DNA from: Candidatus Thorarchaeota archaeon
Lineage (GTDB): Archaea > Asgardarchaeota > Thorarchaeia > Thorarchaeales > Thorarchaeaceae
NCBI GenBank assembly: GCA_011364985.1
Contig: RDOC01000017.1
Location: forward strand, 1 to 11,103
Direction of reading: 5' to 3'
Length of the DNA stretch: 11,103 bases
Positions 1-740 of this stretch are shown here, piece by piece (the stretch's first letter is position 1; each line of letters begins with the position of its first letter). The notes under the pieces were generated by a model. It worked only from the letters and a program-made list of their open reading frames with translations. It was not told where the DNA came from and searched no databases. Made by a program: the position numbers and the translations under genes.

Positions 1-740
1 TTCACTGGCCAATTGTAAGTGGTGGAGATGACAAAAAACTTACCCCAGGGGTAGGCATACTTCTGTATTTGTCACTCCGTACCATTCTGAGGTTATGACT
101 TCATTTCTTCCTCGCGAAGACTGGAGCATGGTTTCAGAGTCGATGCGGGGTACAGATACTGACAGGTTTGAGGACAGGTAAGTTTGGCAGTTTTGACAAC
201 TGGTTCTCATGTCCTGAGATTCGATCTAGTAGCCCCCACACAGAGTTGTCGCGTGCAAGAGTTCATATCGACCACGCGGCTTGCTTCCTCGATGTCGGCT
301 CTTGGTATCCTGGGATTGCATAAGATCCCAAGGGTGCGGGTGCTCACCGATTAAAACCGAACGTGAGCTGGGTTTAGACCGTTGCGAGACAGGTTGGTTT
401 CTATCTATTGGCGCTGTTGGATGTCTGCTGGCAAGCTGATGCCGGTACGAGAGGAACGCATCGACGCGGCCTATGGTGTATCCATTGTCCGATCGGGCAC
501 TGTGGAGTAGCTAAGCCGTAAGGGATAAACGCTGAATGCATCTAAGCGTGAAACCCGACCAAAAAATAGACATCCATTTACTGAACGTTGGTTCCGAAAC
601 CAGCATGGGGCTGGTGACAGCAACGTGTAGTTCAGGAACAAGGACTCTCGTAGAAGACGAGGTTAATAGGGCGGGGGTGTAAGCACCAAGCTCCGGCGAG
701 GTGTTCAGCTCACCGCTACTAATGTCCGAGGCGTGCGGTC
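1..740 (+). rRNA. rrl: 23S rRNA gene, 3' part (domains V-VI), 5'-truncated by the window and interrupted by an intron at 54-239
   Basis: Contains the universal LSU motifs CTTACCCCAGGGGTA|ACAGAGTTGTC (PTC), CCTCGATGTCGGCTCTT, GAGCTGGGTTTAGACCG, the sarcin-ricin loop GTACGAGAGGAAC (445-457), GCTGAATGCATCTAAG and the 3'-terminal CAGCTCACCGCTACTAAT. The ACAGAG and TTTAGACCG variants are archaeal-type. The 3' end is approximate. No 5S gene follows. Confidence 0.97.
54..239 (+). other. Archaeal BHB-type 23S rRNA intron (186 nt, ORF-less) at E. coli-equivalent 2450/2451
   Basis: Removing 54-239 restores GGGGTA-ACAGAG. The junctions form a BHB: central helix GGGG(48-51)/CCCC(234-237), 3-nt bulges UAG(52-54) and ACA(238-240), intron-side helix GC-A-UACU/AGUAGC. 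Cutting after the second nucleotide of each bulge gives exactly these boundaries. Confidence 0.9.

Follow-up and report, generated by a model that had tools for sequence, protein, structure and literature searches.

Introduction

The 23S rRNA genes of Desulfurococcus, Pyrobaculum and Aeropyrum contain BHB introns, and the archaeal splicing endonuclease EndA cuts such motifs after the second base of each 3-nt bulge. The split tRNAs of Nanoarchaeum equitans are trans-spliced, with complementary leaders carried on the 2 transcripts. The common view is that archaeal BHB introns survive only at sites whose flanking exon sequence is able to form the splice motif. BHB introns have also been described in the 16S rRNA genes of Thermoproteales (PMC4496867), and relaxed forms of the motif (HBh' and hBH), associated with (alpha-beta)2 or epsilon2 EndA, are abundant among the tRNA introns of Thermoproteales and Asgard archaea (PMC5829648; PMC11291895; bioRxiv 10.64898/2026.10.13.758758). 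An (alpha-beta)2 EndA with a broad-specificity L1 loop has been reported throughout Asgard (PMC5829648). Here, we describe an insertion in the catalytic loop of a Thorarchaeota 23S rRNA gene and compare it with these systems.

Host gene and assembly

The window, that is, the whole stretch of 11,103 nt analyzed here, opens inside an rRNA gene: positions 1-741 are the 3' end of an archaeal 23S rRNA, matching positions 2441-2987 of LSU_rRNA_archaea, the last 547 of the model (Rfam). The original prediction had regarded this 23S as probably Asgard, which agrees with the identity of one member of the same family (G019, Candidatus Thorarchaeota archaeon A361) and with the Ras-family GTPase encoded in the window. 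The window also codes for HD-domain proteins, a UDG-family protein and a radical-SAM protein. The gene for the Ras/Rab-like small GTPase (8714-9262, minus strand) adjoins that for an HD-domain protein (7299-8720, minus strand), and a second protein with an HD-associated region is encoded nearby (4693-6408, plus strand).

The assembly comprises 22 contigs and is 74% complete, with the window at the start of contig C8. BLAST searches with the rRNA of relatives showed that the 23S gene is split over 2 contig ends, with the 3' part at the start of C8 and approximately 590 nt of the 5' part at C20:65774-66365, whereas the middle of the gene, approximately 1.9 kb, is missing from the assembly. RF02540, searched against the same genome, missed both fragments found by BLAST, even though 741 nt of 23S are present in the window. 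Neither a second copy of the 23S 3' part, nor an intron-less allele, nor a second copy of the intron was found in the 74%-complete assembly. The original prediction made dependence of the ribosome on splicing conditional on this being the only 23S copy; the assembly, itself only 74% complete, holds one 23S gene in 2 contig-end pieces, without an intron-less allele.

The break at the start of C8 lies exactly 53 nt before the insertion, in sequence that other species of the genus share at 100% identity. This break may stem from co-assembly of relatives or from polymorphism for the intron, and the sampled population may be heterogeneous, with intron-plus and intron-minus forms. The same circumstances, namely the contig start 53 nt before the insertion, the identity of these 53 nt in other species and the unassembled remainder of the 23S gene, are what would be expected if the junction were an assembly artefact, or a minority variant joined at a shared 53-nt rRNA k-mer. 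We consider this highly improbable, because 20 other genomes, assembled independently, have homologous introns at this very base with full flanks on both sides, and no intron-less allele is found in the assembly.

Exact borders and position of the insertion

By BLAST, positions 1-53 of the window directly abut position 240 onward in 7 genomes of the same genus (G012, G016, G011, G015, G010, G008, and G014) and in others. The 186-nt insertion that had been proposed to split GGGGUA|ACAGAG is therefore placed exactly at 54-239 by alignment to intron-less relatives, and its borders cannot slide, because A53 differs from C239 and G54 from A240. Within the family, 10 genomes carry an insertion between GGGGUA and ACAGAG, and the sequence is uninterrupted in 28, 7 of them in the genus of the window, where the intron at A2450|A2451 is confined to the window's genome. 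Excision, which had been predicted to regenerate the exon exactly, would restore the conserved sequence that these 28 genomes read without interruption. We take U52 A53 | A240 C241 to correspond to E. coli U2449 A2450 | A2451 C2452, the E. coli sequence being G2447 A2448 U2449 A2450 A2451 C2452. The features of the locus are collected in Table 1.

Table 1. Features of the 23S rRNA locus at the start of the window.
Feature	Position	Strand	Remarks
23S rRNA exon 1, end	1-53	+	Contig starts at 1; 100% identical to uninterrupted 23S of G012, G016, G011
Predicted ORF-less BHB intron, family A, 186 nt	54-239	+	Absent from 28 family genomes; homologs at same site
23S rRNA exon 2	240-741	+	From A2451 equivalent to gene 3' end; Rfam and BLAST
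Central BHB helix H, exon strand GGGG	48-51	+	Pairs with 234-237
Central BHB helix H, intron strand CCCC (CCCU in f5)	234-237	+	
Bulge 1, UA|G	52-54	+	Predicted 5' cut 53/54, from the EndA rule
Bulge 2, AC|A	238-240	+	Predicted 3' cut 239/240, from the EndA rule
Intron-side helix h', 5' strand, A57 bulged	55-61	+	Compensatory changes in homologs
Intron-side helix h', 3' strand	228-233	+	Compensatory changes in homologs
Variable 5' domain, long hairpin in MFE fold	64-160	+	Length very different among homologs
Conserved 3' hairpin S3 (163-166 with 213-216; 170-175 with 203-208)	163-216	+	Loop holds Y1 and Y2
Loop block Y1, GGUAAGUUU	177-185	+	Complementary to exon 1 36-44
Exon-1 target X1, AAACUUACC	36-44	+	Partner of Y1
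Loop block Y2, GACAACU	195-201	+	Complementary to exon 2 244-250
Exon-2 target X2, AGUUGUC	244-250	+	Partner of Y2

In families f1, f2, f5, and f12, as in the window, the peptidyl-transferase loop (window 43-53) reads CCCCAGGGGUA-AC; f14 and f17 have close variants of it, whereas the Odin-like family f3 reads CCCCGGGGAUA-AC. In E. coli numbering, the 2 forms differ by A2448 to G and G2444 to A, a change which creates the GGGG strand paired by the introns.

No ORF is present within the 186-nt intron and hence no LAGLIDADG ORF, unlike in the rRNA introns that bear homing endonucleases. The A2450|A2451 site is 1-2 nt from a classic group I insertion site, which would suit a degenerate self-splicing group I intron, as at the neighboring organelle L2449 site. 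Group I introns are also present in archaeal LSU genes (PMC6125680); however, an intron of only 186 nt with a clear BHB, for which a search of window 40-255 returned no Rfam match at E<=5, group I included, makes such an origin barely credible.

Splice motif and expected processing

The ends of the insertion have the anatomy that the original prediction assigned to them, with 2 3-nt bulges around a 4-bp GGGG/CCCC helix (H). Helix h', on the intron side, is formed by G55 C56 and U58-U61 with A228-C233; in it, compensatory changes affect 4 of the 6 pairs among the Thorarchaeota introns and all 6 over 20 homologs. Over the same 20 homologs, H is 98.8% paired, and controls in shifted register drop to approximately 40%. 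Compensatory changes are also seen at 5 of the 6 pairs in the inner stem of hairpin S3 among Thorarchaeota introns, and the isolated intron folds better than 200 of 200 shuffles (z = −3.5). On the exon side, there is no usable exon-exon helix h, the best exon-exon duplex reaching −4.3 kcal/mol, which bears out the expectation of a poorly paired exon-side helix and a relaxed BHB. The motif is thus of the relaxed HBh' form, still within the archaeal BHB family. Judged from its borders, motif and covariation, the segment 54-239 is very probably an EndA-type BHB intron in a Thorarchaeota 23S rRNA, which would have to be removed.

The same evidence bears on whether the insertion could be kept in the mature rRNA as an expansion segment. 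Large expansion segments are present in Asgard rRNAs (PMC7594248), but a position between 2 adenines of the catalytic loop is no known expansion site, the insertion is absent in close relatives, and its ends form a BHB with a covarying h', so that we give retention very little credence.

The genome encodes 2 EndA paralogs of the alpha/beta type. The paralog of 188 aa keeps the segments bearing the catalytic Tyr, His, and Lys and aligns end to end with the catalytic subunit of Aeropyrum pernix (3p1z_B, E = 1.7e-46), without gaps through the loop region, which gives broad specificity in Crenarchaeota. The other paralog (213 aa) lacks a His at the corresponding alignment position and resembles the structural beta subunit. 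RtcB is encoded as well. Given an alpha/beta EndA and RtcB in the genome, cleavage after A53 and C239 followed by ligation is the predicted route. In the precursor, exon G48-G51 would pair with intron C234-C237, with the bulges flanking H and h' closing the motif; EndA would cut at 53/54 and 239/240, leaving RtcB to ligate the exons into GGGGUA-ACAGAG and to circularize the intron. The predicted spliced junction is CAGGGGUA-ACAGAGUUG and the predicted circular-intron junction is CCCCAC-GGCAUAC. We infer the cutting, ligation, and circularization steps from the anatomy of the motif and established enzymology.

Fragmented rRNAs occur in nature, and the exons might be left unjoined after excision, with the 23S rRNA fragmented at the peptidyl-transferase loop in the manner of bacterial intervening sequences. 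This outcome is very unlikely, given that a break at A2450/A2451 would fall in the catalytic core and that the genome encodes RtcB. Furthermore, EndA products are normally ligated in archaea, rRNA processing stems included (PMC7714728, PMC12918454).

Introns at the same site across Asgard archaea

Four other Thorarchaeota genomes (G048, G019, G095, and G062) have homologs of the intron (family A) at A2450|A2451, with lengths of 144-285 nt; the h' helices of these homologs differ in sequence but keep the pairing. When the intron alone served as BLAST query, G048 was the only genome of the family retrieved; an exon-based search was more informative. A phylum-wide search, with inspection of loci, showed that the A2450|A2451 site is occupied in 2 further Asgard families, f5 and f12. 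In f5, which is probably Heimdallarchaeaceae, a homologous ORF-less intron of 335-423 nt is present in all 16 genomes with coverage, and its 3' domain aligns with the Thorarchaeota introns. Two f5 genomes of one genus are single contigs (3,081,793 and 3,326,783 nt) with one 23S match each, which is intron-bearing; thus, in these genomes, the sole 23S gene carries the intron.

An unrelated family of introns (family B), 739-793 nt long, occupies the same base in 5 Thorarchaeota genomes (G022, G017, G063, G088, and G057; loci L010:716-1506, L012:220-958, L050, L051, and L052). Its ORF encodes 220-242 aa, with the call and the match to LAGLIDADG_3 made for G022 and G017, and its splice motif is a textbook H with an 11-bp h'. 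Relatives of family B in f12 occur with and without the ORF (L055, L058, and L071), the ORF-less remnants of 145-148 nt keeping the intron ends and a CUGGGGU loop. Being occupied by 2 unrelated intron families, A2450|A2451 is a recurrent intron site in Asgard 23S genes.

Several other deviations were observed in these genes. A hairpin mini-intron of 32-33 nt lies 10 nt upstream of the large intron in G019 (L021:9256-9288), G095 (L048:238-269), and G062 (L049, minus strand), the last with a tandem arrangement of 32 and 216 nt. The mini-intron interrupts the gene between bases equivalent to window 43 and window 44, so that a micro-exon of 10 nt remains and the exon 1 segment complementary to Y1 (Table 1) is divided; it and the large intron would compete for the same exon bases, implying an order of removal. 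In 4 f5 genomes (G132, G114, G115, and G130; loci L063, L067, L069, and L070), exon 2 begins with ACGGAG, not ACAGAG, with a G at the A2453 equivalent. In domain V, G011 (L025) carries a 28-nt insert near the A2602 region (4753-4780) and a 216-nt insert further downstream (4811-5026), and the 429-nt domain V insert of G018 (L014) also lies further downstream than the A2602 region. Inserts in the helix-89 loop, from 29 to approximately 340 nt, are found in f14, f17, f20, and G024 (L009; L073-L076).

A conserved intron loop complementary to both exons

The 5 Thorarchaeota introns of family A share only 2 long invariant blocks, GGUAAGUU (177-184) and ACAACU (196-201), both in the loop of a covarying hairpin. 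Extended to the full complementarity, the first block (Y1) is the exact complement of 9 nt of exon 1 and the second (Y2) that of 7 nt of exon 2 (Table 1); both lengths of complementarity were reached in 8 of 3,000 dinucleotide-type shuffles. The exon-1 pairing (E1) follows the exon between lineages: exon 1 reads AAGUUACC in f5 versus AACUUACC in Thorarchaeota, and the loop reads GGUAACU versus GGUAAGU, so that the pair between exon C39 and intron G182 in Thorarchaeota becomes G:C in f5, a fully compensatory column (GC 15, CG 5). Three f5 genomes have ACU in the exon-1 target and a loop reading AGUAACU, with C44:G177 replaced by U:A. The six-pair core of E1 is intact in all 20 sequences of the alignment, and the pair 44:177 is mismatched in 5 of them. 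For the exon-2 pairing (E2), the core is intact in 19 of 20, every change in its 6 bp being wobble-compatible except for one A·A cell. Since the exons are nearly invariant, this model of the loop rests on conservation and approximately 2 independent compensatory events.

The duplex energies are −9.2 kcal/mol for E1 and −7.3 kcal/mol for E2, computed apart from the BHB, as E1 and E2 cross helix H and form a pseudoknot with it. In the nearest-neighbor model, the fold with E1 and E2 lies 1.5 kcal/mol above the MFE, about equal to the BHB-constrained fold.

Other roles for the blocks were considered. Two alternative pairings, one a local hairpin inside the loop, the other a distal 5-bp exon-exon helix, each hold in only 5 of the 20 homologs. 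Y1 does not mimic the natural partner in helix 74, because the mature partner in G019 is CCCUGCGGAGGUU, and the CUGA/UGAGA blocks, with no C box and only a 1-nt bulge, speak against a C/D-box sRNA or a K-turn. A scan for the Y1-Y2 block pattern gave true matches only in G019 and G048 among GTDB genomes, all 10 metagenome matches and the bacterial ones being due to chance. The introns at other sites, the 216-nt one of G011 and the 429-nt one of G018, contain no significant exon-complementary blocks.

On balance, the comparison favors a model in which the conserved intron loop pairs with exon 1 (177-185 with 36-44) and with exon 2 (195-201 with 244-250). Together, H, E1, the hairpin stem, and E2 would then form a closed four-way junction on the exon side of H, and this junction would stand in for the missing helix h and hold the cut exon ends together for RtcB.

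The family B introns carry a comparable element. All family B and f12 introns have CUGGGGU in the loop of a hairpin, 74-75 nt before the 3' end, and this block is complementary to exon 1 directly beside H. Because it lies inside the ORF in Thorarchaeota, it could reflect coding constraint, but its retention in the ORF-less derivatives of 145-148 nt argues for an RNA role. As far as complementarity can tell, this loop fits a simpler version of the exon-binding principle, in which pairing would run flush against H.

A different reading is that Y1 and Y2 do not clamp the exons in cis and instead bind protein or act in trans after excision, for example, with the circular intron RNA antisense to pre-rRNA, so that complementarity would matter only indirectly. 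Stable circular intron RNAs exist in archaea, the proposed pairings are pseudoknotted with H, and the pair made by the first base of Y1 (44:177) is broken in 5 of 20 sequences. We nevertheless find this reading doubtful: E1 tracks the exon change between lineages where alternative pairings hold in only 5 of 20, the order of Y1 and Y2 would, from topology, suit the unspliced precursor, where it closes the four-way junction, rather than ligated exons, and the unrelated family B and f12 loops are also complementary to exon 1 beside H and kept in the ORF-less derivatives. Our preferred reading, to which we assign a probability of roughly 0.55, is that the intron brings along a guide for binding its exons, equivalent to the internal guide sequence of group I introns but in a protein-spliced system, conserved and co-varying with the exon between Thorarchaeota and the Heimdall-type family.

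Discussion

In a full-text literature search, neither BHB introns of Asgard rRNA genes nor exon-binding loops in BHB introns came up as described before. The splicing mechanism appears ordinary, and the lineage and the site A2450|A2451 appear unreported. The exon-binding reading suggests that an intron may itself supply the missing part of the splice motif, which would open a wider set of sites to BHB introns, and it is relevant to the long-standing proposal that the BHB introns of rRNA derive from group I introns, since these likewise bind their exons. Ribosome production in some Thorarchaeota and in every covered genome of the Heimdall-type family, lineages close to the origin of eukaryotes, would depend on tRNA-type splicing at the catalytic center. 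When such introns go unrecognized in Asgard MAGs, they interrupt 23S assemblies and can lead rRNA annotation and phylogeny astray.

Among known systems, the BHB introns of crenarchaeal rRNA genes resemble the present ones in several respects: cleavage by the tRNA-splicing endonuclease at a BHB (predicted here), location in conserved functional regions of rRNA, coexistence of ORF-less and LAGLIDADG-bearing forms, and patchy occurrence among close relatives. Unlike them, the introns described here reside in Asgard hosts, at A2450|A2451, without an exon-exon helix and with a loop complementary to both exon flanks. The relaxed tRNA introns likewise miss one outer helix and are cut by the type of enzyme that we infer here, but here the substrate is an rRNA, the intron greatly exceeds theirs in length, and intron-exon pairings apparently take the place of the missing helix. 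In the split tRNAs of N. equitans, as here, complementary sequences outside the BHB gather the exon-bearing strands for EndA and ligase, whereas the bridging element in the present case would be an intron loop within one transcript. Finally, the group I intron at L2449 (the yeast mitochondrial omega intron, which encodes I-SceI) has a near-identical insertion point and intron sequences that pair with both exons (P1/P10). It is built around a self-splicing ribozyme core, whereas no such core was detected here and the intron appears to be a protein-cut BHB; the resemblance is functional and not one of family membership.
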